Below are positions 12,488-36,756 of a stretch of 43,365 bases of DNA, piece after piece. The translations under genes were made by a program, and so were the position numbers. The notes under the pieces are model-generated. The model was given only the letters and a program-made list of their open reading frames with translations. It was not told where the DNA came from and made no database searches. The stretch is from a virus (taxonomy: Duplodnaviria; Heunggongvirae; Uroviricota; Caudoviricetes), in IMG/VR virus record IMGVR_UViG_3300042863_001217; one strand, written 5' to 3'. How positions within the stretch are numbered: the stretch's first letter is position 1; every line of letters begins with the position of its first letter.

Positions 12488-13441
12488 TTATTTTTCTACA
12501 GTGAATCTATCTCCGCCATCTAATTCGGCAGATCTTTTAATCATGTAGTCCGCTAACTCTTGGAGTTTAGCATCTGTTTCTGCATCTACTTTTCTACCAT
12601 AGAAATCTTCAAACAACACTCTATAAATATCTACAGTTGAATCAAAGGGTACACCTGGCATTGAATTAGATTCAATGATATAAAGTTTCCCATCTTGATC
12701 TTCCATAATATCAAAGCAAATATAAGGTAAATCAGAAAAGATCTTACCAAATTTTGCTATTAATGTATTGAATTTTTCAGGAGTTTTAGATACGTCTTTT
12801 TTAATGTAATCAAACATCATCTTTTCTTTTCCGTCACCATCGCCAGTCTTAGCTTTATCATTAGTAGGTTGTCTCTCTTGCCAAAAGAAAGGTTTGCCTT
12901 TAAATGTAAAGAATCTATGTTCACTCTTTTTATCAATGTATTGTGAATACACATCTAACTTATCGTGATCTGCCGCGTCAAAGTCTTTTTGATTTTTAAT
13001 TACGGTAATTCCTAAACCAGAGTGACCTTCAGTTGGTTTTGCAATCATAGGAAATCCTACTTCTTTAATTGCATCTTCTGTTTTCAAACAAGTCTTTGGT
13101 ATATTCTCGTCACCATCAACTATTTTGTGAAACTCTGCTTTAGATCCTGAATTTACAATAAATTCAGGTTTATTATATACATTTTCTGGATTAATTAAAT
13201 CTTCATCTATTAAAGTTTGTACAACTTTGCTATTATAAGTTAAAACCGGGAAATCCTTATTGATTGTGATTTTTTTATAATTTTCAGGTGTCAATCTGAT
13301 GAAGAATTTATCTGCAGCGAAATCTTTATAAGACCAAAATCTATGGCCTAAATCTGGATTATACGCTAAATAAATCTTATTTAGATCTTGAGGTCCTTTA
13401 GCCTCGTTTAAGAAATCTTCGAATTTGTGTATTGCTCTCAT
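12488..13441 (-). CDS. ATP-grasp (RimK-like) ligase
   Basis: FPMIAKPTEGHSGLGI, SQYID..EHRF and CFDIMEDQDGKLYIIESNSMPG. Confidence 0.8.
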   Translation of the reverse strand: MRAIHKFEDFLNEAKGPQDLNKIYLAYNPDLGHRFWSYKDFAADKFFIRLTPENYKKITINKDFPVLTYNSKVVQTLIDEDLINPENVYNKPEFIVNSGSKAEFHKIVDGDENIPKTCLKTEDAIKEVGFPMIAKPTEGHSGLGITVIKNQKDFDAADHDKLDVYSQYIDKKSEHRFFTFKGKPFFWQERQPTNDKAKTGDGDGKEKMMFDYIKKDVSKTPEKFNTLIAKFGKIFSDLPYICFDIMEDQDGKLYIIESNSMPGVPFDSTVDIYRVLFEDFYGRKVDAETDAKLQELADYMIKRSAELDGGDRFTVEK

Positions 13442-13451
13442 CTAATATATA

Positions 13452-13880
13452 TCAATCTTTAAATACTTCAATGGTAACTTTCTTTTCTATTAGTTCTGAC
13501 CATACACCATTATATCTGGTACCTCTTACAATGTGATTGTCAATCCAGTGATAATTACCTCCTCGAGGTTTCCCCATTAATAAACCATGATATTTAAAAC
13601 CATGCTTATTTAACCAAGTTTCAGTAATATCTCTAGTCTCTTCGGTTCTTGAAGTAAAAAATGTAATGATGTGTCCTTCATTAAACCATCCGTTTAAAGT
13701 TTCTGCAGCACCATCATATGGTAATACAACTGACATTCTTTCTGGTTCTTCGTTAGGTACATCATCTGTAATTGTACCATCAATATCAATCAAATAGTTT
13801 TTGCATCCAGGATTTAATACTGGTGAAACTAAATGTCCATCATCTCCGATGGTTTGATTAAATGTAATCTCTTTTTTCAT
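13452..13880 (-). CDS. HAD-superfamily phosphatase
   Basis: YLIDIDGT motif I, FFTSR motif II, MGKPRG and WIDN. Confidence 0.8.
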   Translation of the reverse strand: MKKEITFNQTIGDDGHLVSPVLNPGCKNYLIDIDGTITDDVPNEEPERMSVVLPYDGAAETLNGWFNEGHIITFFTSRTEETRDITETWLNKHGFKYHGLLMGKPRGGNYHWIDNHIVRGTRYNGVWSELIEKKVTIEVFKD

Positions 13881-13896
13881 TTTTATATTTAATTAA

Positions 13897-15231
13897 TTAA
13901 TTCTCTTTTCTCATAAACGATACACAAACATATCTTTTACCTGCTGTTATTGGTCTAGCTCCGTGTAAATGTGTGACCATGCCTGGATGTAATGTTGCTG
14001 TTCCAACTTTTCTTGGATTTGATAGTGTTTTGTATTTAGGAAACCATGTTCCACCACCATCAAACTCGTCATTCAATTTTACAACCATAGTAACATGACT
14101 GAAATCATGATGTAAGCTCAAGTGAGATTGACGATCTGTTGTGTATCTTGCCATAAAGTTTTCACTAAACATTGTTGACCAACCTTGACCATCTAATCTC
14201 CATAAATGAATACAAATAGGATATACAACTTCTCTTAATACTCTACCATAAATTTGATCTAAACCAAGTTCGGGTAATAAGACATCATTTGTTGGATAAA
14301 ATTCATGTCTGTCTAGTGTCCACTTATCTAGAGTCTCTGCTAAAGCTACTGCTTCTTTACAGAATTTATCAGTGAATAATGGAAACTCGTAGATATTATT
14401 ACCAATATCATCTATCATTAAGTCATATTCACCCTTAGATAATGTATGATTTAAATATTTAGATTTCCATAATTCCCAATCTGAATCATCTAAGATTTCA
14501 AAATACGGTTGATTGCTTTCTTTCATTAGATTTATATTTGCACCAACAGGTTCTGTGTTAGATTCAGAATGTGGTCGATCTTGTTCTATAAAATTTACAG
14601 TAGGTGCTATTGCTTTAAGTTTAGGAGGAAATAGTTCTGCAATATCTTCACGTCTATGCTTTGTAAAAGTCGCTGTTAAAAATTCATCAGGCGTAATAAG
14701 ATTCTCCGTAAAATTATATTCATTTAACAATGTAAGTGCAGTGTTGTGTTTAATAATATATGCATGCGTATTATAACTACTTAACACTTCTACCCAATTA
14801 TGAGCAACTAATAATTCATCTCCTGGAAATAAAGCATGTCGACCTAGGAATGCAATATCGTATTCGACTTCTGGAATTATTGGATTATTAAATGATTTTA
14901 CTTTATGAAAATCATCTTCTAATATCAGTGCTACTTCAACTTTGTCATCTATGATTTTTTGCCAAATCATATGATGACTTATTGCACAACCTGTTTCACC
15001 TGGAGTTACTTCACGTTGCCACCAACCATTTGTGGTTTCATCTTTTAAATTCCAACCATTATATACAGAATATCCTGGTAATATTTCACCAGATCTTCCA
15101 TCAAATCCTTGAACAATTTCCCATGCAACTGCATATGGTAATTGCAAAGCATCGATCTTTTCTATTATTTTACCTTGAGCTTCAGGTTTATTAGCTTCTA
15201 AACTAATTATATAAATTTTATCTATTTTCAT
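13897..15231 (-). CDS. GT25 glycosyltransferase fused to a PLOD-like 2OG-Fe(II) lysyl hydroxylase domain
   Basis: N-terminal GT25 motifs (IYIISL, GFDG, GETGCAISH, LILEDD); C-terminal WKSKY..IYEFPLFTDKFC..PTND..NFMARY..LSLHHDFS..GGGTWF..LHPGMVTHLHG..GKRYVCVSF. Start at 15231 forms an ATGA overlap with the GT4 gene. Confidence 0.85.
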   Translation of the reverse strand: MKIDKIYIISLEANKPEAQGKIIEKIDALQLPYAVAWEIVQGFDGRSGEILPGYSVYNGWNLKDETTNGWWQREVTPGETGCAISHHMIWQKIIDDKVEVALILEDDFHKVKSFNNPIIPEVEYDIAFLGRHALFPGDELLVAHNWVEVLSSYNTHAYIIKHNTALTLLNEYNFTENLITPDEFLTATFTKHRREDIAELFPPKLKAIAPTVNFIEQDRPHSESNTEPVGANINLMKESNQPYFEILDDSDWELWKSKYLNHTLSKGEYDLMIDDIGNNIYEFPLFTDKFCKEAVALAETLDKWTLDRHEFYPTNDVLLPELGLDQIYGRVLREVVYPICIHLWRLDGQGWSTMFSENFMARYTTDRQSHLSLHHDFSHVTMVVKLNDEFDGGGTWFPKYKTLSNPRKVGTATLHPGMVTHLHGARPITAGKRYVCVSFMRKEN

Positions 15232-16247
15232 ATAGATTCTAATGTAGATTTCCAATCATAAGATCTAGCATTCCATGTTTGACATTTAGCCCATTGGAAA
15301 GCATCTTCAATTGCTTTGTTTTTAAGTTCATTACCTAGTGTGTCTAATATTTTTACGACTTGTTCCCAATTTGTTTCATGACGATCTAATATAATTCCAG
15401 AATTTACAGTCTCATTTAATGCTGCAATATTTGTAACTATAGGAAGTACCTTAGCGTATTGCATTTCTAGTGCAGTGATACAATAAGTCTCTTCATAATC
15501 TGTTATGTAGCACCAATATTCTGATCTTAACATTGCGTTATGTAAGATTTCTTGATTAACAGAACCGTGGAATTTTATTCCCATGCTTTTGTTGTAATGA
15601 CTATCATCAATATCTGTAATTGCATATGCTGGTGAAAACACATCTAATGTAGCATGTGGCATTATTCTTTTAATCGTGTGCCAATTCTCCAATAATTCCT
15701 TTAAACCCCGTTCTGCTGCTGAACTATATATGAATTTACCTTTTATTTTTTCAGGGTTGCCATAGAAGGTAGACAAGTCTATACCGTTTCCAATGACAGA
15801 TATTTTATCTAGTGGTATATTATATGCATTTGACCATTGATTCTTATGCCAATTAGTTAAACATATTGTATGATCCACTTGTTGTATTAATTGGTCAGCA
15901 TCTTGTAATTCTATACCATTAAACCACGGATGATGATGTGTATTATGTGCCCAAAATATCTTCTTAGCATTGTACCCTTTAAATTCTTTTAGGAAATGAA
16001 TATAACTTGCTGAAACAATAAAATCAAATTGATCAAAGTATTTGTTATGTAAATCATTAGTTGAAATCCATTCTACTCCATCGATTAATCCTGAATTATT
16101 AACTTCGCCTGAAACAACAACTTTATAACCAAACTTAACCATCTCTTTGGCTAATTTAATTATAGATACTTCTGTTCCACCGAGACCATATGTAGTGTTA
16201 CCATCGAATCCATGGCTTTGATAACCCGCATAAATTAGTAGTTTCAT
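15228..16247 (-). CDS. GT4-family (GT-B) glycosyltransferase
   Basis: GLGGTE N-terminal motif, IGNGID, YSSAAERGL and EETYCITALE (EX7E). Confidence 0.88.
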   Translation of the reverse strand: MKLLIYAGYQSHGFDGNTTYGLGGTEVSIIKLAKEMVKFGYKVVVSGEVNNSGLIDGVEWISTNDLHNKYFDQFDFIVSASYIHFLKEFKGYNAKKIFWAHNTHHHPWFNGIELQDADQLIQQVDHTICLTNWHKNQWSNAYNIPLDKISVIGNGIDLSTFYGNPEKIKGKFIYSSAAERGLKELLENWHTIKRIMPHATLDVFSPAYAITDIDDSHYNKSMGIKFHGSVNQEILHNAMLRSEYWCYITDYEETYCITALEMQYAKVLPIVTNIAALNETVNSGIILDRHETNWEQVVKILDTLGNELKNKAIEDAFQWAKCQTWNARSYDWKSTLESI

Positions 16248-16280
16248 TTAATTATAATATTATAATATATTTATCTAACT

Positions 16281-16308
16281 AAAAAAAACCTATATTTCTA
16301 TAGGTTTT
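16281..16308 (-). terminator. intrinsic terminator
   Basis: AAAACCTATA/TATAGGTTTT stem with a T-run. Confidence 0.6.
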
Positions 16309-16314
16309 AAATTG

Positions 16315-16842
16315 TTATTTTTTTGTTGCTAATCCCCATACATGTCCACGTGGAGAAACAATATCTTCTAATGTGTAATATTTAGATAATTTATCTAACC
16401 AAAATTCTTTAGGTTCGACTATCAGATGTAGATTTGTTCCATCTTCAAATGAATTAAAAGAAGGTAACAAACACACTTTAAAATAAAATATCTTATTTGT
16501 CTTTGAAGCAATATGTTCTAATACATTATCTAATTTGTCGGGCTCGATATGTTCGAGTACATCAACACAAATTACCATATCACTGGCGATTGGATCACTA
16601 GCTAATTCAGGTCTTGCTGGTTCATATTGATTAATCTGAAAACCATGATCTGGAAAATCACGATCTATTGTTTTCAAGAAATCAGATTTACCAGAACCAT
16701 AATCTAAAATAGATTTGCAATTATGTTCAGATGCATATTTATAAATTCTAGGAACCGATCCTATTACATCTCCGCCCCATGGCATTTTTTGAGTAACAGC
16801 TTCTATCTTGGATCTATACTCGTCTGATAGTAAATTTTCCAT
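16315..16842 (-). CDS. class I SAM-dependent methyltransferase
   Basis: ILDYGSGKS motif I, DMVICVDVLEHI and NLHLIVEPKEFW. Confidence 0.88.
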   Translation of the reverse strand: MENLLSDEYRSKIEAVTQKMPWGGDVIGSVPRIYKYASEHNCKSILDYGSGKSDFLKTIDRDFPDHGFQINQYEPARPELASDPIASDMVICVDVLEHIEPDKLDNVLEHIASKTNKIFYFKVCLLPSFNSFEDGTNLHLIVEPKEFWLDKLSKYYTLEDIVSPRGHVWGLATKK

Positions 16843-17778
16843 TTATCGTTTAGGACCACTAGGTCCATTTGGTTTATTTTGTGGATTTTTCTTAGGTTGA
16901 TCTAAGAACCATCCTTTGTAATATTTACGTTTGGCAAAAATGTATTCAAAATACAAGTCAACCTTTTTCTTCCAATCTTTGTCAATTACTGGATGAATAA
17001 GTCCAGACTTAGGACTTGAAAATGTTCTATTAACCCATTCTGGTGCATTATTTCTGTGGTCAAATAAGTGTGAATTGATTGCATAGAAAGAACCTTGGTG
17101 TACATTATTCCAAACATCAATAGGCTCAACTTCTTTACCTAAAACGGTAGCATATAAAGCACTTTCACTGATGTGAGTTGTATAAACCTTTTCTGCTTTT
17201 TGTAAGAAGTGATACAAATCGATATCTCTAGGTAAAATAGCTTCTTCACCGAAGAGATCTTTGATTTCTCCAATTACAGCGTGCGTTGTAATTGGATGTG
17301 GTTTAAAGTAAATATCACCCTTATGCTCTTTAGCAATTTGAATTAATTTATTTAAACAACAATTTGTTTTAAGCTTATTTGATCCAGGAAGAATAACAAG
17401 AATAGATTTATTTGAATAAGAATCAAAATCTTCTTTACGCTCTTGATACTTGTTAGCCATTTTAGATTCTATATTAGATCTGAAATATGCAGCCCAATCT
17501 GAAACGTCTTCAACATTATCTAGATATGCATCCATGATTTGGCCTGTTCGCATCTTTAGATTTAAAGGTTGTAACATAAATACTGTTGCATATTCGGTAT
17601 ATCCCATAGTTTTGAAGTATGGCATTTCTTCGGCAATCACATCATAACTATGTTCAATACCTAATTCTTTACATTTCTTAATCACATATCTTTCAACCTC
17701 TTCCAAGGCATCCAGATTTACATTCTTTTTTAGAGGTCCTATTCGTTCTGCTAGAACTTTCTTGTTAAACATTTCCAT
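16843..17778 (-). CDS. KpsS/KpsC-like (capsule synthesis family) GT-B protein
   Basis: IYFKPHP...DLYHFLQKAEKVYTTHISESALYATVLGKEV fits the K-HP / ll..a..V.T..S...eA...gk.V pattern. Confidence 0.55.
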   Translation of the reverse strand: MEMFNKKVLAERIGPLKKNVNLDALEEVERYVIKKCKELGIEHSYDVIAEEMPYFKTMGYTEYATVFMLQPLNLKMRTGQIMDAYLDNVEDVSDWAAYFRSNIESKMANKYQERKEDFDSYSNKSILVILPGSNKLKTNCCLNKLIQIAKEHKGDIYFKPHPITTHAVIGEIKDLFGEEAILPRDIDLYHFLQKAEKVYTTHISESALYATVLGKEVEPIDVWNNVHQGSFYAINSHLFDHRNNAPEWVNRTFSSPKSGLIHPVIDKDWKKKVDLYFEYIFAKRKYYKGWFLDQPKKNPQNKPNGPSGPKR

Positions 17779-17797
17779 ATGTTAAAATAATTTAATT

Positions 17798-17824
17798 GTT
17801 ATACAAACAAACTTCTGTTTGTTT
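17798..17824 (-). promoter_or_regulatory. class B promoter (AAAC-N17-TATAAC), with an adjacent GATAAATA motif at 17828-17835
   Basis: Exact spacing; heads the glyco-modification gene run. Confidence 0.65.
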
Positions 17825-17852
17825 AATTATTTATCTAACTTATTTTATAGGC

Positions 17853-17882
17853 AAAAAAAAGACCTACCGAAGTAAGTCTTTT
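17853..17882 (-). terminator. intrinsic terminator with a C(UUCG)G tetraloop
   Basis: Minus strand GACTTAC-TTCG-GTAGGTC followed by T8. Confidence 0.8.
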
Positions 17883-17901
17883 CATTTTAGTATTTTGTGT
17901 T

Positions 17902-20061
17902 TTAATTACCTTGATATGGATTTTGTCTCCATTGTCTATTTGTAGATAGTTTATTAAGAGGTGTATTATTTGCGTACCAAGTTTCTAATTTTTCGTAAGC
18001 TGTAATCCAAGTTGTTGTCCAACTTGTACTCGTAGATACACTTGTAGTCCAAGTTGTTGTGGTTGCCCATGTGGTTGTCCATTCTGTACTAACACTATAA
18101 ATAGTTGACCAAGTTGTAGTTGTCGATTGACTCGTACTCTGGCTCGTATTATAAGTGGTCGTTGTAGATACACTTGTATTATACGTAGTAGTCGTAGATG
18201 CACTCGTATTATACGTAGTAGTCGTAGACTGTGACGTATTTTTAAGAGTTGCCCAAGTAGTTGTCCATTCTGTAACCCAACTTGTAGTTGTACTTTGGCT
18301 CGTATTCCAATTTGTAGTCCACGAAGTAGTATACGTCATAGTCGTTGACTGATTGGTAGACTGACTCGTTGTCCAACTTGTAGTTGTACTTTGTGAAGTA
18401 GAAAATGAAGTTGACCATGAAGTCGTCCATGTTGTCGTTGTACTATGACTCGTAGATTGACTCGTTGTCCAATTAGTTTGCCAAATTGTCGTTGTACTAA
18501 GCGTAGTAGATTGACTCGTTGTGTGACTAGTTGAATATGTTGTTGTCCACGTAGTAGTCGTAGACTGACTCGTTGATTGGCTAGTTCCATGACTAGTTGA
18601 CCAAGTTGTAGTTGTACTATGACTTGTACTATGACTCGTTGTATGACTCGTTGTCCATGTAGTCGTGTACGTGGTTGTAGTCGATTGGTTAGTAGACCGA
18701 CTTGTAGCCCATGTAGTAGTTGTACTTCGACTCGTAGATTGACTCGTAGTGTGACTTGTTAACCATGTAGTTGTATACGTAGTTGTGGTACTTTGACTCG
18801 TATTATATGTAGTTATCCAAGATGTAATCCAACTTGTAGATGTAGATCTACTCGTACCTTGACTCGTATTATATGTTGTCGATGTAGCATGACTCGTTGT
18901 GTGACTAGTTACATATGCAGTAGTCCATGAAGTTGTCCACGTAGTAGTTGTACTATGACTCGTATTATACGTGGTCGTTGTAGATCTACTTGTTGACTGA
19001 CTCGTAGTGTGACTAGTTGAATATGTAGTTGTCCACGTAGTAGTTGTACTATGACTCGTAGACCAAGCTGTCGTTGTAGATCTACTAGTACTTTGACTCG
19101 TCATGTGACTAGTTACATAATTTGTAAGCCATGTTGTAGTCGTTGTATGACTCGTTGACCAATTAGTTGTATATGTTGTCGTTGTATTCTGAGCTGTTAA
19201 ATCACTGGTAACTCGACTTGTAATATATGTTGTAGTCCATGAAGTTGATGTTGAATGACTAGTGTTATATGCAGTTGTTGTCGATTGACTCGTCGCATGA
19301 CTCGTATTATACGTTGTAGTCCAATATGTAGTCCACGTAGTAGTCGTACTTTGACTCGTTGCATGACTCGTTATGTATGTAGTAGTTGTACTTTGACTCG
19401 TTACATGACTCGTTGCCCAACTAGTGATCCACTCAGTCCAATATGAAGTTGATGTTGAATGACTAGTGTTATATGTTGTTGATGTTGCTAGACTTGTACT
19501 TTGACTCGTTGAATGACTAGTTGCATATGATGTTGTATACGTAGTTGATGTTGCATGACTCGTCGCCCAAGTAGTAGTCCAAGCTGTTGATACATCCGAA
19601 AATGTACTTTGACTAGTAGTATGTGAAGTACTTGCAGAAGTATTATATACTGTACTAGTAGAATGACTCGTTGCCCAAGTAGTAGTTGTATTATGACTCG
19701 TAGTTTGGCTAGTGTTAAAATAAGTAGTCCAATAAGTATCCCAATAAGTTGCGGTTACATGTGATGTAGTTCTGCTAGTATTGTATGATGTTGTCCATGC
19801 AGTAGATGTAACATGACTAGTATTAAAATATGTAGTCCATGAAGTACTAGCATAAATTATAGGAGGATATGTAACCTGAGAAGTATTTGCATAATAGAAT
19901 GTACTTTGACTAGTGTTTCTATAAAACGAAGTAGTTCTACTAGGATACGCGATATAACTCGTAGTTCTACTAGGATATACCCATGCAGCAGTTGCACGAG
20001 AATATGGAACAGGGCCATATGCTTGATATGAAGTAGTCCAATATGTTGTATAAATCGCCAT
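17902..20061 (-). CDS. Thr/Ser-rich repetitive protein (xTS-W/Y/H/Q repeats), putative virion fibre or decoration protein
   Basis: 719-aa uninterrupted ORF in a region where other frames close; degenerate codons under a strict peptide pattern. Confidence 0.85.
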   Translation of the reverse strand: MAIYTTYWTTSYQAYGPVPYSRATAAWVYPSRTTSYIAYPSRTTSFYRNTSQSTFYYANTSQVTYPPIIYASTSWTTYFNTSHVTSTAWTTSYNTSRTTSHVTATYWDTYWTTYFNTSQTTSHNTTTTWATSHSTSTVYNTSASTSHTTSQSTFSDVSTAWTTTWATSHATSTTYTTSYATSHSTSQSTSLATSTTYNTSHSTSTSYWTEWITSWATSHVTSQSTTTTYITSHATSQSTTTTWTTYWTTTYNTSHATSQSTTTAYNTSHSTSTSWTTTYITSRVTSDLTAQNTTTTYTTNWSTSHTTTTTWLTNYVTSHMTSQSTSRSTTTAWSTSHSTTTTWTTTYSTSHTTSQSTSRSTTTTYNTSHSTTTTWTTSWTTAYVTSHTTSHATSTTYNTSQGTSRSTSTSWITSWITTYNTSQSTTTTYTTTWLTSHTTSQSTSRSTTTTWATSRSTNQSTTTTYTTTWTTSHTTSHSTSHSTTTTWSTSHGTSQSTSQSTTTTWTTTYSTSHTTSQSTTLSTTTIWQTNWTTSQSTSHSTTTTWTTSWSTSFSTSQSTTTSWTTSQSTNQSTTMTYTTSWTTNWNTSQSTTTSWVTEWTTTWATLKNTSQSTTTTYNTSASTTTTYNTSVSTTTTYNTSQSTSQSTTTTWSTIYSVSTEWTTTWATTTTWTTSVSTSTSWTTTWITAYEKLETWYANNTPLNKLSTNRQWRQNPYQGN

Positions 20062-20100
20062 GTTTTAGTTTATATAATTTATTTCTATTTATTATTCTAT

Positions 20101-22830
20101 TTACATCTCTTTAATTCCAGGACCATCTTTACCACATAAATAATCACAACCAAAGTCACCTGCATATGGGCTACATGGATCATAACATGGATCATTTGGA
20201 TCACATAAGAATGGACCATATCCATTAAAATCACATAAACCTGGTTTCTTATTATGAGTTAAGATTCCATTTGCAAAAAATGTATCGTTGGGTTCAGTGT
20301 CTAATTTATAAACAACATATGGTGTAGTAGTATCTTCAACTAATGAAGTTATTTCTATTTCTATACCACTGATGTGATATAATTTATCTCCAAGTTGTAA
20401 TGCAGAAGCAGCTCTAGAGATCCATGCGCCATCTCTTTTAAAAATGTGCATATGTTCAGCTGTAGTTTTTAATAATCCATTATTTATATCTATGATACCG
20501 AAAACATTTACACGATCTGCTCTAACTAAAATATCATCTATTGATAAACTATTTGTAATATTAGGAGTAGATACTGCTATTAATGCCGGTATATTATCAA
20601 CATTAAATGGTCCATCCATTGTTAAAATATTATCGTTTAGTTTTAAACTTTCAACAAGCACAGTAGTATTCGTTGAAATATTAATCGGCGTTCCTTCGAC
20701 TATACAATCGAAAGCTTCAGTACTTCTTTCTGCTGTATAACTTACCCAATAATATTCATATTGATCCCAGTAAGTTGTCCATTCTTGCCATGATGACCAT
20801 GTAGTTGTGTAAGAAACAGTAGACGTCCAATTGGTTCCATATTCAACATAAGTACTCCATGTCGTTGTATAATTTATAGCTGTCGACCATGTGGTTGTAT
20901 AAGATCCACCTCCACCAACTTGTGTAGATCTAGATAATGCTAGAGAAGTTCCATAAGTCGTAGTTGTACTTTGACTCGTAACATGTGAAGTTACCCAAGT
21001 AGTTGTATATGTAGTTGTGGTATTTATTCCAGTACTTCTACTTGCACCAGCTGATGTCCCCCATGTAGTTGTATAAGTAGTCGAAGTTATTCGAGATGTA
21101 TTATAAACTGTTGAAGTTGCATGACTCGTTGCCCAAGTAGTTGTATATGAGGTAGTCCATGAAGTAGTCCAAGTATATCTAGTTATTTGACTCGTAGATC
21201 TACTTGTATTATATGTAGTTGTAGTAGAATGACTCGTACTATGACTAGTTGCATATGTTGTAACCCATGAAGTTGTCCACGTAGTAGTCGTTGAATGACT
21301 AGTTGCATATGTTGTTGTTGTATTATGAGAAGTTACTCTTTGTGTAACTTGACTTGTATTATATGTTGTAGTCCACGTGGTAGTCGTTGAATGGCTAGTT
21401 GCATATGAAGTTGTCCACGTAGTACTTGTAGTTCTACTTGTTGACTGACTCGTAGTGTGACTAGTTGCATATGTTGTTGTCCACGTAGTACTTGTACTAT
21501 GACTTGTGTTATATGTTGTAGTAGTTGATTGACTCGTAGTGTGACTAGTTGCCCATGAAGTAGTCCACGTAGTAGTCCATATTGTAACGGTTGTATGACT
21601 AGTACTTTGGCTTGTGTTATACGTGGTCGTAGTTGATTGACTCGTACTATATAATGTATTATATGAAGTAGACCATGAAGTAGTCCACGTAGTAGTTGTA
21701 CTTTGGCTTGTGTTATACGTGGTCGTAGTCGATTGACTTGTAGCATGACTTGTGCTATAAGTTGTAGTCCACGCAGTAGTCCACGTAGTAGTAGTTGAAT
21801 GACTCGTACTATAAGTTGTTGTTGTAGACGCACTAGTACTTTGACTCGTTGTATGACTAGTTGCATATGACGTTGTGTATGTAGTTGTAGTTGAATGACT
21901 CGTTAACCACACAGTAGTCCATGAAGTAGTTGTACCCATTGAAGTTGTCAGTTCATATGCAGTAGTATGCGAAGTTGTCCAAGTTGTTGTTGTACTATGT
22001 GAAGTGGTCTGACTAGTATTATATGAAGTAGTCCATGAAGTTGTCCATGAAGTTGTCGTAGAAACACCAGTATCCCAAGTTGTAGTCCACGCAGTAGTTG
22101 TACTATGCGAAGTAGTTTGATTTGTATTATACGAAGTTGTCCATGAAGTTGTATAAGTAGTTGTAGTCGATTGACTAGTACTATATGTTGTAACCCATGA
22201 AGTAGTCCATACAGTAGATGTACTTTTATTCGTCGAATGACTAGTGCTATAAGTTGTAGTCCATGAAGTTGTCCAAGTAGTTGTCGTACCTTGACTTGTA
22301 TTCCATAATGTAGTCCATGAAGTTGTATAAGTAGTAGTTGTACTTTGACTCGTAGATTGACTAGTTGTCCAAGTTGTTACCCATGAAGTGCTCGTACTCT
22401 GATTAGTTGTCCATGAAGTAGTCCAAGTAGTTGTAGTACTATGTGATGTGCTTTGACTGGTTCCAATAGAAGTACCCCAAACTGTTGTTGTAGATCTAGA
22501 AGTACCCAAACTAGTAGTCTGATTAGTATCAACCAATGTAGCCCAAACTGTTGATGTACTATGTGATGTAGACCAAACTGTAGTTGTACTATGTGATGTA
22601 GACCAAACTGTAGTTGTACTATGTGAAGTTGACCACACTGTTGTCCAAGTGGTCGTAGTAGATTGACTAGTATTAAATGCCTTGTCAGTCATTCTTGAAG
22701 TTGTTACAGCTTCATTCGTAGACTGAGAAGTTGACCACGCAGTCGTAGTAGACTGTGCAGTACTCTTTGAAGTTGATACACCGCTTGATGTACTCCAAAA
22801 ATCGATTCTAGAAAATCCTATATTCTTCAT
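20101..22830 (-). CDS. Thr/Ser-rich repetitive protein with a C-terminal Hint domain and Cys-rich tail
   Basis: 909 aa; same repeat as its neighbour, then CIVEGT..TTAEH..FFANGILTHN and a 49-aa peptide with 6 Cys. Confidence 0.85.
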   Translation of the reverse strand: MKNIGFSRIDFWSTSSGVSTSKSTAQSTTTAWSTSQSTNEAVTTSRMTDKAFNTSQSTTTTWTTVWSTSHSTTTVWSTSHSTTTVWSTSHSTSTVWATLVDTNQTTSLGTSRSTTTVWGTSIGTSQSTSHSTTTTWTTSWTTNQSTSTSWVTTWTTSQSTSQSTTTTYTTSWTTLWNTSQGTTTTWTTSWTTTYSTSHSTNKSTSTVWTTSWVTTYSTSQSTTTTYTTSWTTSYNTNQTTSHSTTTAWTTTWDTGVSTTTSWTTSWTTSYNTSQTTSHSTTTTWTTSHTTAYELTTSMGTTTSWTTVWLTSHSTTTTYTTSYATSHTTSQSTSASTTTTYSTSHSTTTTWTTAWTTTYSTSHATSQSTTTTYNTSQSTTTTWTTSWSTSYNTLYSTSQSTTTTYNTSQSTSHTTVTIWTTTWTTSWATSHTTSQSTTTTYNTSHSTSTTWTTTYATSHTTSQSTSRTTSTTWTTSYATSHSTTTTWTTTYNTSQVTQRVTSHNTTTTYATSHSTTTTWTTSWVTTYATSHSTSHSTTTTYNTSRSTSQITRYTWTTSWTTSYTTTWATSHATSTVYNTSRITSTTYTTTWGTSAGASRSTGINTTTTYTTTWVTSHVTSQSTTTTYGTSLALSRSTQVGGGGSYTTTWSTAINYTTTWSTYVEYGTNWTSTVSYTTTWSSWQEWTTYWDQYEYYWVSYTAERSTEAFDCIVEGTPINISTNTTVLVESLKLNDNILTMDGPFNVDNIPALIAVSTPNITNSLSIDDILVRADRVNVFGIIDINNGLLKTTAEHMHIFKRDGAWISRAASALQLGDKLYHISGIEIEITSLVEDTTTPYVVYKLDTEPNDTFFANGILTHNKKPGLCDFNGYGPFLCDPNDPCYDPCSPYAGDFGCDYLCGKDGPGIKEM
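20251..20706 (-). other. Hint (intein-like, BIL-type) autoprocessing domain, 152 aa
   Basis: Cys1 (AFD|CIVEG), block B TxxH (TTAEH), terminal His-Asn; the +1 residue is Lys; no endonuclease insert. Confidence 0.85.
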
Positions 22831-22857
22831 ATTGTTATATTCTTTATATTCTTTTTA

Positions 22858-25809
22858 TTATGCGAAATGTCCTACATAGTTACATAATACTTGACCGCTA
22901 TTATTTATTATGAATGATATTACTGATACTAGATTTGGTGCAGTTACAAAATTAATATCTGCTCCAGATGGTGTTAACATGTTTGCTGGTAACTGTGACC
23001 ACGTAGTTCCACTTGGTCCATTTACAAGTATGATAGTTCCTGATTGTCCATAATTAGTAGCTCCAACAGGAGTCATAGTTATTGCAGCAGTTGCTCCACC
23101 TGTAATTTGAAATATATTACCTAAATCTGGAGAAACATTGTATATGCCTCCTGCACCAGTGACTGTGATAATTCTCACCTTTTCTGCTCTTGTAATAATT
23201 ACATCATTAAATTGAACATTTGAATCAGTTTTAGTATCTTGATTCATTGCCGTAGCATATGCGTTAGAAGTACCGGTATCACCTTTTACACCTGAAGATC
23301 CGTTTGTACCATTAGTTCCTGAAGAACCATTAGTTCCATTAGTTCCTGAAGATCCGTTTGTACCATTAGTTCCTGAAGAACCATTAGTTCCGCTAGTTCC
23401 ATTAGTACCACTTGTTCCATTAGTTCCAGAAGAACCAGAACTACCATTCGTTCCTGAAGTACCGTTAGTTCCTGAAGATCCATTTGTACCGTTAGTTCCT
23501 GAAGATCCATTAGTACCACTTGTTCCATTAGTTCCTGAAGTACCGTTAGTTCCTGAAGATCCATTTGTTCCATTAGTTCCTGAAGATCCATTAGTACCAC
23601 TTGTTCCATTAGTTCCTGAAGATCCATTAGTTCCACTTGAACCTGAAGATCCATTTGTACCTGATGTACCATTAGTTCCTGATGTACCATTAGTTCCTGA
23701 AGTTCCGTTAGTTCCACTTGAACCTGAACTACCATTAGTACCACTTGAACCATTAGTTCCTGAAGTTCCAGGAGCACCTTTAGCACCTGAAGTTCCATTT
23801 GTACCAGAAGTTCCATTTGTTCCACTTGAACCTGAACTACCATTAGTTCCTGAAGTTCCATTAGTTCCAGATGTACCGTTAGTTCCACTTGAACCATTTG
23901 TTCCACTAGTTCCATTAGTACCAGTATTACCTTGAGGTCCTTGAATAGAACCGCCTCCCATCCATCCGTCTGTTGAAGTCCATATCCAAAGTGAATCATC
24001 TGCTTGTACAATATATGCATCTCCATTTAAATTACCTTGTGTTGGTAATAATAAAGAAGTTGCAACTTGTCCTTGCATTGTAACGCCCCAACCTGGATTT
24101 CCTTGTACACCTATTTCACCCTTTTGACCTTTAATACCTGAAGTTCCATTAGTTCCAGATGTACCATTTGTACCTGAAGTTCCATTCGTACCGTTTGTTC
24201 CTGAAGATCCATTAGTTCCTGAAGTTCCATTAGTTCCTGAAGTACCATTAGTACCATTTGTACCTGAAGTTCCATTCGTTCCAGAAGAACCAGATGTTCC
24301 ATTAGTTCCAGATGTACCATTTGTACCTGAAGTTCCATTAGTACCACTTGAACCAGAAGATCCATTCGTTCCAGATGTACCGTTAGTTCCTGAAGATCCA
24401 TTCGTTCCAGATGTACCGTTAGTTCCTGAAGTTCCATTAGTACCATTAGTTCCAGAAGATCCATTAGTTCCAGATGTACCATTCGTACCTGAAGTTCCAT
24501 TAGTTCCTGAAGTTCCATTAGTTCCTGAAGTTCCATTTGTACCATTAGTTCCAGAAGTTCCATTAGTTCCAGATGTACCATTCGTACCTGAAGTTCCATT
24601 AGTTCCATTAGTTCCACTTGAACCATTAGTTCCTGAAGTTCCATTAGTTCCACTTGAACCATTAGTTCCTGAAGTTCCATTAGTTCCATTAGTTCCACTT
24701 GAACCATTAGTTCCTGAAGTTCCATTAGTTCCTGAAGTTCCATTTGTACCATTAGTTCCAGAAGTTCCAGGAGCACCTTTAGCACCTGAAGTACCATTAG
24801 TTCCAGATGTACCGTTAGTTCCTGAAGATCCATTAGTACCATTTGTACCTGAAGATCCATTCGTTCCAGATGTACCGTTAGTTCCACTTGAACCAGAAGA
24901 TCCATTCGTTCCAGATGTACCGTTAGTTCCACTTGAACCTGATGTACCTGGAGCACCCTTTAAACCTGTTGCACCTACTGGAATTGTGAATTTCAATATC
25001 GCATTACTTTCAGTACCCATATTAACGACATTGGCAGGAGTACCTTCTAAACCTGTTACAGTAGGATCTATACTAATTACAGCATTCGTTCCAGTTACAC
25101 CTTTGATACCTGAAGTACCATTCGTTCCACTAGTTCCATTAGTTCCGCTTGAACCAGAACTACCATTCGTTCCACTAGTTCCATTCGTTCCTGAAGTACC
25201 ATTAGTTCCATTCGTTCCTGAAGTACCATTAGTTCCAGATGTACCATTAGTACCGCTAGTTCCATTCGTTCCATTAGTACCAGAACTACCATTCGTTCCT
25301 GAAGTACCATTCGTTCCATTAGTTCCTGAAGTTCCTCTGTCACCAATAGGTAGAATAAACATGAATAAGTCATCATTATTAACTAACGATGACCAGTTTG
25401 AACTTGCTATAGGTTCTAAAGCAAGCGTTCTTTCACCTGATCCTAGAGTTACACTATTTACGTAAAATGTTTTGTAGATATTGCCATTGGTTGCACTTGT
25501 AATAACGATGATTGACTTTCTATTATTAGTAGAAAGTGTCATAGCATCTAATGAAATTGTAGCACTAAGACTTTTAGAGCTTGTTTCACTTATAACAAGA
25601 GATGTAGGCGTAACTATATTATTAAATCTTAAAAAACCTGATGCTACCAAACCAGATGTAGAATTACTATATTTATATGGTAATCCAAATGTGTTTGGCA
25701 ATGCTGCGTTTGCATATTTACCAGTGCTTGAATTATACATTAAAACGTCACCGGTAGCTGGTGATGTAGATAGGAATTCAAGAATTTGTTTTAGTTTCAG
25801 TTGAGACAT
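22858..25809 (-). CDS. collagen-like (G-T-N / G-T-S / G-S-S) fibre protein with globular N- and C-terminal domains
   Basis: Long G-X-Y runs with two interruptions, few Pro; C-terminal beta-rich domain. Confidence 0.88.
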   Translation of the reverse strand: MSQLKLKQILEFLSTSPATGDVLMYNSSTGKYANAALPNTFGLPYKYSNSTSGLVASGFLRFNNIVTPTSLVISETSSKSLSATISLDAMTLSTNNRKSIIVITSATNGNIYKTFYVNSVTLGSGERTLALEPIASSNWSSLVNNDDLFMFILPIGDRGTSGTNGTNGTSGTNGSSGTNGTNGTSGTNGTSGTNGTSGTNGTNGTSGTNGTSGTNGSSGSSGTNGTSGTNGTSGIKGVTGTNAVISIDPTVTGLEGTPANVVNMGTESNAILKFTIPVGATGLKGAPGTSGSSGTNGTSGTNGSSGSSGTNGTSGTNGSSGTNGTNGSSGTNGTSGTNGTSGAKGAPGTSGTNGTNGTSGTNGTSGTNGSSGTNGTNGTSGTNGSSGTNGTSGTNGSSGTNGTNGTSGTNGTSGTNGTSGTNGTNGTSGTNGTSGTNGTSGTNGTSGTNGSSGTNGTNGTSGTNGTSGTNGSSGTNGTSGTNGSSGSSGTNGTSGTNGTSGTNGTSGSSGTNGTSGTNGTNGTSGTNGTSGTNGSSGTNGTNGTSGTNGTSGTNGTSGIKGQKGEIGVQGNPGWGVTMQGQVATSLLLPTQGNLNGDAYIVQADDSLWIWTSTDGWMGGGSIQGPQGNTGTNGTSGTNGSSGTNGTSGTNGTSGTNGSSGSSGTNGTSGTNGTSGAKGAPGTSGTNGSSGTNGSSGSSGTNGTSGTNGTSGTNGTSGTNGSSGSSGTNGSSGTNGTSGTNGSSGTNGTNGSSGTNGTSGTNGTSGTNGSSGTNGTNGSSGTNGTSGTNGSSGSSGTNGTSGTNGTSGTNGSSGTNGTNGSSGTNGTNGSSGTNGTNGSSGVKGDTGTSNAYATAMNQDTKTDSNVQFNDVIITRAEKVRIITVTGAGGIYNVSPDLGNIFQITGGATAAITMTPVGATNYGQSGTIILVNGPSGTTWSQLPANMLTPSGADINFVTAPNLVSVISFIINNSGQVLCNYVGHFA
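23270..25344 (-). repeat. coding 9-bp-period degenerate tandem repeat (Gly-X-Y); boundaries approximate
   Basis: Repeated GTTCCATTA / GTTCCTGAA units on the plus strand. Confidence 0.85.
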
Positions 25810-30212: not shown

Positions 30213-33200
30213 TTATGATTCTACAAAGAATGTTATAATTATGTAAGAAGGCGTAGCTCCTGTTGCAACACCAACTGCTGTTGTAACTGCAGTAAATTGT
30301 ACAGAGGCATTACTTTCTGTATTTATTATTGCATTTACAGAGGCAGTAGTACCTATAATAGCTTTGGTAAATAAATTACCTACACCATCTCTTGCCGTAG
30401 TAGAACCCATTAAAACTGGTTTTCCTAAAGGATGTGTAAGTGTTAGGTTATTGCTTGATTTTGCAATATTCCAACCACTAACTAACCAACCTGATGCACT
30501 ATTGTATATTTCTGTACCATTAGGTGCATACACGTTTGCGATAGGTGTAGTAGCATCTATACTACCAGATAATGTGTTAACTTTAATTTTATAAGCAACT
30601 ATAGCTCCAGTAGCATTTGTTCCATCATTACCTGGAGCACCTTGTACTCCATCGATTCCAGATGTACCATTAATACCATCGATTCCAGAAGTACCATCTA
30701 AACCATTTGTTCCGTCGTTTCCATTAGCACCATCAATACCTGAAGTACCATCAAAACCACTTGTTCCATCAATACCTGAAGTACCATTAGTTCCATCGTT
30801 TCCATTAGCACCTTGTAAACCATCGATTCCAGATGTACCATTTAAACCATCAATTCCTGATGTTCCGTTTAAACCATCGATTCCAGATGTACCATCGTTT
30901 CCATTAGCACCTTGAATTCCATCAATACCTGATGTTCCGTTTAAACCATCGATTCCAGATGTACCATCGTTTCCATTAGCACCTTGAATTCCATCGATTC
31001 CAGAAGTACCATTTGTACCGTCTAAACCATTAGTTCCATCGTTACCATTAGCACCTTGTAAACCATCGATACCTGATGTTCCGTTTAAACCATCGATTCC
31101 AGATGTACCATCGTTTCCATTAGCACCTTGAATTCCATCGATTCCAGAAGTACCATTTGTACCGTCTAAACCATTAGTTCCATCGTTACCATTAGCACCT
31201 TGAATTCCATCGATTCCAGAAGTACCATTTGTACCGTCTAAACCATTAGTTCCATCGTTACCATTAGCACCTTGTAAACCATCGATACCAGAAGTTCCAT
31301 CTAAACCGTTTGTTCCATCGTTACCATTAGTACCTTGAAGTCCATCAATACCTGAAGTACCATTAGTTCCATCGTTACCATTAGCACCTTGAAGTCCATC
31401 GATTCCAGAGGTTCCATCTTGACCAGCTAAACCTGAAGTTCCGTTTTGACCATCAATACCTGATGTTCCATTAATACCTGAAGTTCCAGTATCACCTTGA
31501 ATACCTTGTGCTCCATTAGTTCCTGAAGTTCCGTTTTGACCAGCTAAACCCGAAGTTCCATTTTGACCGTTTATTCCAGATGTACCATCAATACCTGATG
31601 TTCCATCGTTTCCAGCATTACCTTGGTCACCTTGAATACCCTGTGCTCCATTAGTTCCTGAAGTTCCATCTTGACCATTTAAACCGGAAGTTCCATTGAT
31701 ACCAGAAGTTCCACTAACTCCTGAAGTTCCATTAGTTCCACTAGTTCCATTTTCTCCGGCAAGACCTTGATCTCCTTGTGCTCCATTTGTTCCATCAATA
31801 CCTGAACTTCCATTAAGTCCTGAAGTACCATTAACTCCTGAAGTTCCAGCAGGTCCAGTTTCACCTTGATCACCTTTTACACCTATTTCTCCGTTTGTTC
31901 CAGAAGTACCATTAATACCTGATGTACCATCTTGACCATTTATACCTGAAGTACCATCAATTCCTGATGTACCATCGTTTCCATTTATACCGTTTAAACC
32001 AGAAGTTCCATTTGTTCCAGAAGTTCCATCAATACCAGAAGTTCCAGCATTACCTTGTAAACCAGTTTCACCTTGTAAACCAGTTTCACCTTGTAAACCT
32101 TGTGCTCCATCAATACCCGAAGTTCCATCTAAACCATTAATTCCAGAAGTTCCATCTAAACCATTTGTACCATCGTGACCTGAAGTTCCATCAATTCCTG
32201 ATGTACCATTTACTCCAGAAGTTCCATCATTACCAGCAGCTCCTTGTGTTCCATCAATTCCTGATGTACCATCTAAACCATTAGTACCAGATGTACCATC
32301 TAAACCATTTGTACCATTAATTCCTGATGTACCACTTTCGCCATTTGTTCCTGAAGTTCCATCATTACCAACATTACCTTGTGCTCCGTTAATTCCAGAT
32401 GTACCATCTAAACCATTTGTTCCTGAAGTTCCATCATTACCAGCATTACCTTGTGCTCCGTTAATTCCAGAAGTTCCATTGATACCTGATGTACCATCTT
32501 GACCATTGATTCCAGAAGTTCCAGCTAAACCATTGATTCCTGATGTTCCATCTTGACCATTGATTCCAGAAGTTCCAGAAGTTCCATTAGTTCCAGATGT
32601 ACCATCAATACCAGCATCACCTTGTAAACCTTGTGCTCCATTAATACCACTAGTTCCATTGATTCCTGAAGATCCAGAAGTTCCAGACGTAGTAACAGTA
32701 ACTGAAGGGAAAATAACTTCAACACTTCCGTTTCCATCATTATTTACAATTGCACCACCACTAAATTTAATGTTATGTACATCATTTATAGCAGCAGCGC
32801 CGTTTGGTGTGATTGATATACCATGTGGTGAAGAATAAGATTCTGTAAAAATACCTAATTCATCTCCAGCTTCAATTAAGTAAGATGATCCAGGTACATA
32901 TGAATTTCCTTCTGCCTGAACTATTAATTCAATAGCATCATCAGCTTCATTTACAAGAGGATTATTTTGATCAGCGTTAATTACATCAATTCTACTCCAG
33001 CTTTTAATTTCAAATGCAGAATATTCGCTATTATTATTTACGTTAGTTAAGAATAAAGAAACTAAAACACCATCTATATTAATTCTATTCTCTAATACTG
33101 ATTCAAGATATGCATTTCTATAACCCTTATCATCTTTAAGTGCAATTCTAATTTTACTAACACTCGATGGATTTGCAGCATTTAAAATAATTTCACCCTG

Positions 33201-33689
33201 TGCTGGTTTACCAGTGATTGAAAATGATTTTACTTTATATACAGATCCTGGTAAAGTAAATCTACTAGTTACTATATCTCCGACAGCTTTTCCTGCATCA
33301 TAAACATTTGCAACCTTAATAGCAGGTAAGTCAACTTTATTAATACCTAAAGTAGTATAAACTTTAGCTTTTATTGCTCCTGATATATTAGCATCACTAA
33401 ATGGTAAAGCTGCAGTTTGTTCAGCAGATATTGCTATAGATATTTCTCCTTGGAAATCTGAATTAGGTGAACCAAAAACAAGTGTTCCTGATGTTTTTGC
33501 AAATGTAGCAATTAAAGTATTATTAGTGTCAAATAAATCTACTTTAATTTCATTGGCAACCCCAATATTTAGTTGATTACCAATGTAATCTTGGTGTAGC
33601 ATAAGTTTTATGCTATTAGCTTGACCTCTAACGATTCTCGCTACTTCCGGTAATACTAAAATTATGTTTTGATTTGAAACAGTTGGCAT
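30213..33689 (-). CDS. large collagen-like (GTS/GID/GLN/GND) fibre protein
   Basis: About 330-aa globular N-terminus, about 690 aa of G-X-Y, about 110-aa C-terminal domain. Confidence 0.88.
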   Translation of the reverse strand: MPTVSNQNIILVLPEVARIVRGQANSIKLMLHQDYIGNQLNIGVANEIKVDLFDTNNTLIATFAKTSGTLVFGSPNSDFQGEISIAISAEQTAALPFSDANISGAIKAKVYTTLGINKVDLPAIKVANVYDAGKAVGDIVTSRFTLPGSVYKVKSFSITGKPAQGEIILNAANPSSVSKIRIALKDDKGYRNAYLESVLENRINIDGVLVSLFLTNVNNNSEYSAFEIKSWSRIDVINADQNNPLVNEADDAIELIVQAEGNSYVPGSSYLIEAGDELGIFTESYSSPHGISITPNGAAAINDVHNIKFSGGAIVNNDGNGSVEVIFPSVTVTTSGTSGSSGINGTSGINGAQGLQGDAGIDGTSGTNGTSGTSGINGQDGTSGINGLAGTSGINGQDGTSGINGTSGINGAQGNAGNDGTSGTNGLDGTSGINGAQGNVGNDGTSGTNGESGTSGINGTNGLDGTSGTNGLDGTSGIDGTQGAAGNDGTSGVNGTSGIDGTSGHDGTNGLDGTSGINGLDGTSGIDGAQGLQGETGLQGETGLQGNAGTSGIDGTSGTNGTSGLNGINGNDGTSGIDGTSGINGQDGTSGINGTSGTNGEIGVKGDQGETGPAGTSGVNGTSGLNGSSGIDGTNGAQGDQGLAGENGTSGTNGTSGVSGTSGINGTSGLNGQDGTSGTNGAQGIQGDQGNAGNDGTSGIDGTSGINGQNGTSGLAGQNGTSGTNGAQGIQGDTGTSGINGTSGIDGQNGTSGLAGQDGTSGIDGLQGANGNDGTNGTSGIDGLQGTNGNDGTNGLDGTSGIDGLQGANGNDGTNGLDGTNGTSGIDGIQGANGNDGTNGLDGTNGTSGIDGIQGANGNDGTSGIDGLNGTSGIDGLQGANGNDGTNGLDGTNGTSGIDGIQGANGNDGTSGIDGLNGTSGIDGIQGANGNDGTSGIDGLNGTSGIDGLNGTSGIDGLQGANGNDGTNGTSGIDGTSGFDGTSGIDGANGNDGTNGLDGTSGIDGINGTSGIDGVQGAPGNDGTNATGAIVAYKIKVNTLSGSIDATTPIANVYAPNGTEIYNSASGWLVSGWNIAKSSNNLTLTHPLGKPVLMGSTTARDGVGNLFTKAIIGTTASVNAIINTESNASVQFTAVTTAVGVATGATPSYIIITFFVES
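30612..32690 (-). repeat. coding Gly-X-Y repeat with higher-order duplications; boundaries approximate
   Basis: GTSGIDG(L/I)QGANGNDG blocks recur several times at about 30800-31400. Confidence 0.85.
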
Positions 33690-36708: not shown

Positions 36709-36729
36709 TTGTTAATTGTTTTTATAGTA

Positions 36730-36756
36730 GTTATACTATAATTTAATAAATAGTTT
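36730..36756 (-). promoter_or_regulatory. class B promoter (AAAC-N17-TATAAC)
   Basis: Exact spacing; overlaps the clpC 3' end, upstream of the hydroxymethylase-like gene. Confidence 0.65.

Follow-up and report, generated by a model that had tools for sequence, protein, structure and literature searches.

Hydroxylysine and Glc-Gal glycosylation are, to our knowledge, regarded as hallmarks of animal collagens, with mimivirus as the one viral exception. The locus described here raises the question of whether a virus of bacteria applies the same chemistry to its own fibres. The DNA is a tailed-phage record of 43,365 nucleotides (IMG/VR IMGVR_UViG_3300042863_001217, Caudoviricetes), the whole of which is called the window below. 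The gene in question, at 13897..15231 on the minus strand, is an open reading frame (ORF) of 444 amino acids plus stop. A first-pass annotation, made from the sequence alone, had described its product as an N-terminal GT25 glycosyltransferase domain joined to a C-terminal PLOD-like lysyl hydroxylase (LH) domain, and had proposed that the phage modifies its collagen fibres in a eukaryote-like way, for which no example in a phage was known to it. PDB sequence and fold searches agree on these two domains, Pfam identifies the GT25 domain, and a full-text literature search found no published description of a phage lysyl hydroxylase or of hydroxylysine in phage collagens. The reading that GT25-LH is a bifunctional collagen-lysine modifying enzyme acting on the phage's own collagen-like fibres is supported by the best matches of both halves, by co-occurrence with collagen genes and by versions in cultured phages, and its probability is put at about 0.65.

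Domains and active sites of the GT25-LH protein

The ORF is uninterrupted from an ATG at 15231 to a stop codon at 13897-13899. This ATG is taken as the true start because the N-termini of 24 homologues align at it, and none at the upstream TTG, and because it overlaps the stop codon of the upstream gene as ATGA. Full-length homologues of 430-475 amino acids number at least 271, and the family alignment and profile were made from 25 homologues with identities as low as 42%. The AlphaFold2 model has a mean pLDDT of 82 and contains two folded domains on either side of a disordered linker. The GT25 (COLGALT-like) domain comprises residues 1-220 (14572..15231, minus strand), the linker residues 221-241 (14509..14571, minus strand; pLDDT below 50), and the PLOD/L230-type LH domain residues 245-444 (13900..14499, minus strand); the linker differs in length and sequence among homologues. 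NCBIfam holds no model for this protein, and a near-identity search with 10 kb of the window against GenBank phages gave no match.

On sequence and modelled fold, the C-terminal domain is assigned to the 2-oxoglutarate (2OG)/Fe(II) dioxygenases of the PLOD/L230 lysyl hydroxylase type. L230 of Acanthamoeba polyphaga mimivirus is a bifunctional enzyme (lysyl hydroxylase and hydroxylysine glucosyltransferase) of 895 amino acids with an LH3-like architecture that acts on the collagen of the virus itself (PMC5802723). In a single-sequence search of PDB sequences, residues 253-440 of the phage protein match the LH domain of L230 at an E-value of 5e-28 and human LH3 at 6e-23. The family profile improves these values to 1.5e-36 and 1.3e-32, spanning chain residues 34-234 of 235 and so the helical N-terminal part of the LH domain as well, while prolyl 4-hydroxylases (P4H), the next 2OG family, reach only 5e-3. 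The match to L230 has 32-35% identity and a Foldseek TM of 0.81 (by target, 6ax6), as against about 0.5 for P4H. When the model was searched with Foldseek, LH3, the LH domain of L230 and COLGALT1 ranked first, and mimivirus R655, bacterial GT25 and P4H far lower. Thus the domain groups with PLOD-type enzymes by sequence and fold, as first proposed, rather than with prolyl or nucleic-acid oxygenases.

The Fe(II) triad H374, D376 and H423 corresponds to H825, D827 and H877 of L230 in a HMMER alignment. Of the 2OG ligands, Y363, the Tyr of an R/K-Y motif, aligns with Y814 of L230, and R433, which sits ten residues past the distal H423, aligns with R887 of L230 and R729 of LH3. The L230 residues are the known Fe ligands (H825, D827, H877) and 2OG ligands (Y814, R887) of that enzyme, for which they have been proven essential (PMC5802723). 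All five phage residues are invariant in the 25 homologues, so that the iron ligands (HxD and a distal His) and the 2OG-binding Arg, described at first reading as intact, are conserved throughout the alignment. The PLOD motifs listed at that reading are all present: WKSKY at 255, YEFPLF at 281, FC at 290, PTND at 313, NFMARY at 358, HHDFS at 374, GGGTWF at 392, LHPGMVTHLH at 414 and RYVCVSF at 433. The dimer lock of L230, in which L873 enters a pocket formed by Y798, Y801 and Y831, is mirrored in part. Residues that fit in the alignment are V419 (V or I among the homologues) at L873, W344 at Y798 and W351 at Y801; V380 stands where L230 has Y831.

Pfam GT25 (PF01755) covers residues 4-111 of the N-terminal half with a score of 57.4 bits, the curated cut-off being 24 (E 2e-15). 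This half matches human COLGALT1 at 2e-9 in a single-sequence search of the PDB. The GT25 profile matches the catalytic GT2 domain of COLGALT1 at 1.8e-24 (profile positions 1-211), compared with 1.5e-6 for a bacterial GT25 (8xlz), and Foldseek gives the same order, 3e-14 for COLGALT1 and 5e-8 for bacterial GT25. COLGALT1 is therefore the top match by sequence and by fold, in line with the GT25 assignment made at first reading. The motif LILEDDF, which contains the metal site E105-D106-D107, aligns with the FEDD motif of COLGALT1. COLGALT1 has an unusual Mn-binding E435-D436-D437, in which E435 and D437 are essential (PMC12003778); E105 and D107 are invariant in the 25 homologues.

A single glycosyltransferase domain precedes the linker, and it corresponds to GT2 of COLGALT1 only, not to the two-domain GT1+GT2 layout. 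A search for the PLOD-type glycosyltransferase (GT) domain (PF25342) gave no match in the GT25-LH protein at E-values up to 1. Thus the protein shares with LH3 and L230 a C-terminal LH domain in one chain with a glycosyltransferase, and differs from them in having no N-terminal PLOD-type GT. GT25-LH lies outside the LH3/L230 architecture, for want of that domain, and outside the two-domain COLGALT type. Its N-terminus has no signal peptide-like stretch, for which reason the enzyme should act in the cytoplasm of the infected host.

Collagen-like genes beside the GT25-LH gene

The window encodes two collagen-like fibre proteins. Collagen 1 (22858..25809, minus strand; 983 amino acids; PF01391 at 2e-86) has three G-X-Y segments, at residues 156-242, 279-575 and 624-848. 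Its seven G-x-K-G sites (K236, K284, K344, K560, K563, K677 and K842) lie mostly at the ends of these segments. Collagen 2 (30213..33689, minus strand; 1158 amino acids) has G-X-Y sequence over 690 residues, in which Lys occurs once at Y (K605) and never at X. The first-pass annotation had counted these sites correctly, namely GIKG twice, GLKG, GAKG twice, GQKG and GVKG in collagen 1, and one GVKG in collagen 2. Every Lys in the triplets of collagen 1 is at Y and none at X. Collagen 1 is most likely the main substrate, through its seven sites, and collagen 2 a possible minor one.

To follow the LH domain across viruses, IMG/VR was scanned with an alignment of 11 LH sequences, one of 30 sequences being too diverse for a locus scan. 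At least 398 contigs carry the domain; the counts given here refer to the best 80 loci, which collapse to 54 distinct ones. A collagen ORF lies within 10 kb at 33 of the 54, mostly directly upstream, and collagen is present at 20 of the 29 loci having at least 5 kb of upstream flank. Within 7079 triplets of the collagens at LH loci, Lys occurs 927 times at Y and 31 times at X. Wherever a syntenic relative has enough sequence upstream, the enzyme module is preceded by collagen-like genes, whose Lys residues stand at Y and hardly ever at X (Y/X counts of 10/0 and 24/0, including 21 GDKG, in L007; 11/0 in L008; 64/0 and 23/0 in G003; 61/0 and 55/8 in L020). At one locus where GT25-LH is fused to a further glycosyltransferase of family GT4, 113 of the 178 triplets of the collagen directly upstream have Lys at Y, and the locus includes a tail-sheath gene. 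A T4-type gp23 capsid protein is encoded on related contigs that share this gene cluster, and the window itself has phage-typical genes for PhoH, RNase HII, an RNA ligase, ClpP, a ClpB/C-like ATPase and two proteins of the thymidylate-synthase family.

Collagen adjacency was found in at least four different LH architectures, cultured phages included. No two-domain GT25-LH protein was found in GenBank phages, where Roseobacter phage CRP-6 gp58 and Synechococcus phage S-CAM9 gp218, both annotated as 'hypothetical protein', have the composition GT25, PLOD-type GT and LH. They lie two and four annotated genes, respectively, downstream of collagen-bearing tail-fibre genes, and the collagen runs of these tail-fibre proteins, gp60 of CRP-6 and gp222 of S-CAM9, are full of GAKGQKGE or GQKG/GPKG. 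PF25342 is present in both, as well as in P0220 and P0245. Co-occurrence with GxKG-bearing collagens in related phages, which the annotation had proposed as a check, is thus observed, the three-domain versions of cultured phages included.

Further collagen runs were observed in the related T4-like contigs G004, G002 and G001 (loci L014, L015 and L016). A protein of 500-600 amino acids there contains a single collagen run of 13 triplets in which four or five Y positions are Lys, and it could be an additional, easily overlooked class of substrate. The G004 contig has a GT25-only homologue as the sole member of the family, and it also carries the protein with the short collagen run.

Two relatives that lack the enzyme provide a natural experiment. 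G005 (L032/L042) and G006 (L033/L043) are syntenic to 12488-25809 of the window, with neighbouring genes 52-90% identical. A search of their contigs, 78.5 kb for G005 and 150 kb for G006, gave no LH domain; as the G005 contig is estimated to be only 27% complete, an LH gene may lie elsewhere in that genome. The G005 orthologue of collagen 1 keeps one of the seven G-x-K-G sites, and at three others it reads R, N and D. L159, L160 and L005, which are LH-positive, retain the C-terminal site as GSSG(V/I/L)KG, where G005 reads GSSGLDG. In G006 the orthologue is reduced to 159 amino acids: its N-terminal 34 residues run straight into the C-terminal globular domain, and the collagen region between them is missing. 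A third relative, G007 (L034/L051), has the LH half only, as an ORF of 212 amino acids (G007:C1:34612-35250) that corresponds to residues 230-442 of the window's protein and has a TAA just upstream. This ORF still adjoins GT4 and Lys-rich collagens, and reflects either a recent loss of GT25 or an assembly error.

Proposed pathway and rival explanations

Directly upstream of GT25-LH, at 15228..16247 on the minus strand, lies the gene of a GT4-family (GT-B) glycosyltransferase (PF13439 and PF00534), whose stop codon is the one in the ATGA overlap and whose E-x7-E motif (E253..E261) is invariant. GT4 has the same position in L001, L005-L008, L020 and L035-L038, and the order of collagen(s), GT4 and GT25-LH is kept in relatives of 43-91% identity. 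GT4, GT25 and LH form a single chain in P0224, P0225 and P0227 and at 14 of the 54 IMG/VR loci, and GT4 and GT25-LH are jointly absent from G005 and G006. Other LH-domain architectures are GT25-PLOD_GT-LH, GT4-LH, LH alone, C39 peptidase-LH and GT25-LH-TPR. This fusion pattern fits a module of one hydroxylase with one or two sugar transferases, in which GT4 is probably the second-sugar transferase, taking the place of the PLOD-type GT domain.

The genes from collagen 1 to the downstream end of the module's block stand in a single run on the minus strand: collagen 1, two Thr/Ser-rich repeat proteins, a 311-amino-acid protein, a methyltransferase, GT4, GT25-LH, a HAD-type phosphatase and an ATP-grasp protein. 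Gaps in this run are at most 123 nucleotides and contain no convincing terminator, all terminator-like matches falling inside coding sequence. With 13 occurrences where 9.3 are expected, the T4-type late promoter motif TATAAATA shows no enrichment, and a sigma-70 promoter scan gave fewer sites than shuffled sequence. Therefore, it is from the common strand and the short gaps that we infer co-transcription of GT25-LH with the fibre genes.

The identity of the domains, the integrity and conservation of their catalytic residues, and the linkage and fusion of the genes were computed directly; the substrate, the sugar, the order of the reactions and the way in which the fibre is affected (in stability, protease resistance or adhesion) are what we infer in the following scheme. 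Late in infection, GT25-LH would meet new collagen-like chains that are still unfolded. The LH domain would convert the Lys of selected X-Lys-Gly sites to hydroxylysine with Fe(II), 2OG and O2, ahead of triple-helix folding, and the tethered GT25 domain, with the help of a divalent metal, would then attach a hexose donated by a UDP-sugar to the hydroxyl group just formed. The translationally coupled GT4 would extend the glycan by a second sugar. Since the sites of collagen 1 are mostly at segment ends, the modification may mark or stabilise segment boundaries rather than coat the whole helix.

Several observations weigh against this scheme. The collagens of the window are poor in Lys, with 7 + 1 sites in about 430 triplets, which is below their relatives. 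At 21 of the 54 phage loci there is no collagen in the flanks examined, and no collagen match was obtained on four of five whole contigs checked from such loci; the contigs without collagen form one subgroup (L076, L106, L112 and L113) and are fragmentary. Among bacterial LH loci, only 1 of 33 has a collagen ORF within 8 kb, although collagen-like genes are present elsewhere in four of the five LH-bearing genomes checked, as compared with 2 of 14 control genomes. The LH domains of CRP-6 and S-CAM9 keep the Fe triad, and their 2OG-binding Arg is replaced by Lys. The orthologue of collagen 2 in G005, which lacks LH, has 21 G-x-K-G-D sites, as compared with a single site in the window. Lys at Y thus occurs without LH and cannot by itself identify substrates, and its exclusive use at Y, considered at one stage as a marker of LH substrates, was dropped for this reason, being compatible with the scheme but not specific to it. 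K-G-D/E is a known stabilising pattern in collagen, and the Lys residues at Y in G005 probably follow it. Finally, the donor sugar is not predictable from the relatives, as L230 uses glucose and COLGALT1 uses galactose.

The bacterial homologues show a variety of settings. GT25-LH is found in chromosomes of cultured Cytophagales (Dawidia, Parachryseolinea and Chryseosolibacter; L134 and L136-L138). GT4-LH occurs in metagenome-assembled genomes (MAGs) of Rhodobacteraceae and Granulosicoccaceae and in one Chromatiales bacterium, and a stand-alone LH in Thiotrichales (L131, Thiothrix fructosivorans). At none of the loci L131, L134, L136-L138 and L141-L145 is there a collagen gene within 8 kb.

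The absence of collagen genes near 21 of 54 phage and 32 of 33 bacterial loci is what an enzyme with non-collagen targets would give. In that case, the hydroxylase would act on Lys or a different residue in other proteins of the phage or the host, and GT25 on its product or on a glycan of the host envelope, for example lipopolysaccharide (LPS), as part of an auxiliary or host-remodelling gene. Homologues carry the JGI label 'GR25 family glycosyltransferase involved in LPS biosynthesis', PHROGs places both halves under moron and auxiliary metabolic genes, the L112/L113 subgroup has GT25-LH among sugar-metabolism-like rather than fibre genes, and the window has genes resembling the CMP-Kdo pathway. 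On the other hand, the GT25 half is far nearer to COLGALT1 (1.8e-24) than to the solved bacterial LPS GT25 (1.5e-6), the hydroxylase is specifically LH-like, and the fused domains perform consecutive steps of one known pathway. In addition, collagen adjacency recurs in at least four architectures, those of cultured phages included, and where the genes are lost, collagen 1 has also lost Lys sites or its collagen region. On balance, non-collagen targets are considered unlikely.

Slightly less probable again is independent action of the domains, with GT25 and GT4 O-glycosylating Ser/Thr residues of the collagens and repeat proteins while LH makes plain hydroxylysine for cross-linking or stability. 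Bacillus BclA has an O-glycosylated Thr-rich collagen-like region, and the collagens of the window are almost pure G-T-N/G-T-S. Furthermore, their neighbours at 17902..22830 consist of Thr/Ser-rich repeats with very few Lys residues, and other sugar-related genes (GT4, a DUF2827 protein and the methyltransferase) are in the same block. Against this, fusions of GT25 with LH, and of GT4 with both, recur, which argues that the reactions are coupled on a single substrate residue; among solved structures, the GT25 half is nearest to the COLGALT1 domain, which is specific for hydroxylysine; and module-bearing relatives have Pro/Gln/Lys-type collagens without Ser/Thr richness. That the protein is a decaying or inactive relic, retained for a structural or binding role, as might be suggested by the LH-only ORF of G007 with a stop codon ahead and by the absence of the genes from two close relatives, is very improbable in view of the uninterrupted ORF, both active sites being intact and invariant down to 42% identity, and at least 271 full-length homologues.

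If GT25-LH is a collagen-lysine modifying enzyme, its closest pathway is that of human LH3 (PLOD3) and COLGALT1 (GLT25D1) (PDB 6fxk, 9evj and 8zgc), where the same two families catalyse consecutive steps. The phage version is minimal in comparison: COLGALT1 contains a second, non-catalytic domain (GT1), and LH3 a GT domain and accessory domains. LH3 adds the second sugar with a PLOD-type GT-A domain, whereas the phage probably uses the GT4 (GT-B) enzyme. The two animal enzymes form a complex in the lumen of the endoplasmic reticulum, while in the phage both families are in one chain. The closest characterised enzyme is L230 (PDB 6ax6, 6ax7 and 9nev), likewise a viral single chain in which a GT domain at the N-terminus is combined with LH at the C-terminus. 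L230 gives the best PDB sequence match to the LH half, and the two have the same Fe triad and the same Tyr and Arg ligands of 2OG. L230, however, belongs to a virus of a eukaryote and has 895 amino acids, whereas the phage protein, with GT25 joined directly to LH, has 444, pairs with a separate GT4 and would act in the bacterial cytoplasm.

CRP-6 gp58 and S-CAM9 gp218 resemble the window's protein in their GT25 and LH families and in lying a short distance downstream of G-x-K-G-rich tail-fibre genes. They differ in having the extra PLOD-type GT domain and no separate GT4, and their LH domains are only about 28% identical to that of the window; no discussion of them was found in the literature. 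Viral and bacterial P4H (PBCV-1 vCPH and Bacillus anthracis P4H) are also 2OG/Fe(II) dioxygenases on collagen-like repeats and a distant fold match, but they belong to another subfamily, hydroxylate Pro instead of Lys and have no glycosyltransferase fusion. Other families of bacterial 2OG dioxygenases, not including this one, have been predicted by Iyer and colleagues to modify collagen-like proteins (PMC2938197).

A broader and rather doubtful extension would be that tailed phages and some bacteria run the whole 'animal' collagen-lysine pathway, from hydroxylysine to one or two sugars, in a prokaryotic cytoplasm, that prokaryotic and phage LH, GT25 and PLOD-GT domains were the source of the metazoan and giant-virus PLOD and COLGALT enzymes, and that hydroxylysine-linked glycans on the phage fibres tune adsorption and host range. 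The diversity of domain combinations (GT25-LH, GT4-GT25-LH, GT4-LH, GT25-PLOD_GT-LH and LH alone) is compatible with a prokaryotic source, and GT25-LH bears in this way on the origin of the metazoan collagen-modification enzymes. Should the collagen-lysine function hold, a compact enzyme that is widespread among marine phages, with at least 398 IMG/VR contigs, and occurs in cultured phages too, would bring collagen-lysine chemistry to viruses of bacteria, and GT25-LH would be a minimal, soluble, prokaryote-compatible tool for the production of hydroxylated and glycosylated recombinant collagens. Present labels, such as 'LPS biosynthesis GT25', 'hypothetical protein' and '2OG-Fe(II) oxygenase', overlook both the fusion and its likely role.

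Other genes of the window

Two genes follow GT25-LH in the same run. The HAD-type phosphatase (13452..13880, minus strand; Pfam LNS2/HAD matches) is an often linked neighbour, being located downstream of GT25-LH in most relatives, and it is also kept in the LH-less G005 and G006. The ATP-grasp ligase-like gene (12488..13441, minus strand; weak ATP-grasp matches) is a variable neighbour, found in some relatives, LH-less ones included.

Between collagen 1 and the enzyme genes lie two very long Thr/Ser-rich repeat proteins (17902-20061 and 20101-22830, minus strand). They have regularly spaced Trp/Tyr and almost no Lys within the repeats, and the pair is kept in relatives, including those without LH. 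The second, which has no Pfam match, closes with a C-terminal region that is rich in Cys and free of repeats. Among the fibre genes, a DUF2827 protein (26507-27706, minus strand; E 6e-76) adjoins a protein of 201 amino acids. It is 79% identical in the LH-less G005 and so is not tied to the GT25-LH module.

The slot upstream of GT4 varies with the type of collagen. Directly upstream of GT4, relatives with collagens rich in Pro at X have a gene for a small 2OG-FeII_Oxy_3/PKHD-type hydroxylase of about 190-200 amino acids (L007:8400-8978, L008:1505-2089, L006:1407-1988 and L020:8312-8923), with no counterpart at 16248-17900 of the window. This gene may encode a prolyl-hydroxylase partner that co-varies with the collagen substrate. 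In the window and its nearest relatives, with their almost Pro-free G-T-N/G-T-S collagens, the slot is taken by the 311-amino-acid gene (16843-17778, minus strand), which belongs to no Pfam or NCBIfam family. The methyltransferase gene follows it in the window and in a relative of 91% identity.

At 39605-40899 on the minus strand, a cytidylyltransferase (CTP_transf_3, KdsB-like) and a SIS-domain protein (KpsF/KdsD-like) are encoded, which suggests a phage-encoded sugar activation of the CMP-Kdo type. ClpP, the ClpB/C-like double-AAA ATPase and the two genes of the thymidylate-synthase family are located at 34861-38751 (minus strand), 35860-36708 and 40903-42018 (minus strand). One of the latter two is canonical (E 2.5e-92), and the other is divergent (E 6e-19) and possibly encodes a dCMP or dUMP hydroxymethylase-type enzyme. 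An LH domain 80% identical to that of the window is part of a GT25-LH gene on a contig binned to a Flavobacteriaceae MAG, which is a weak hint as to the host.

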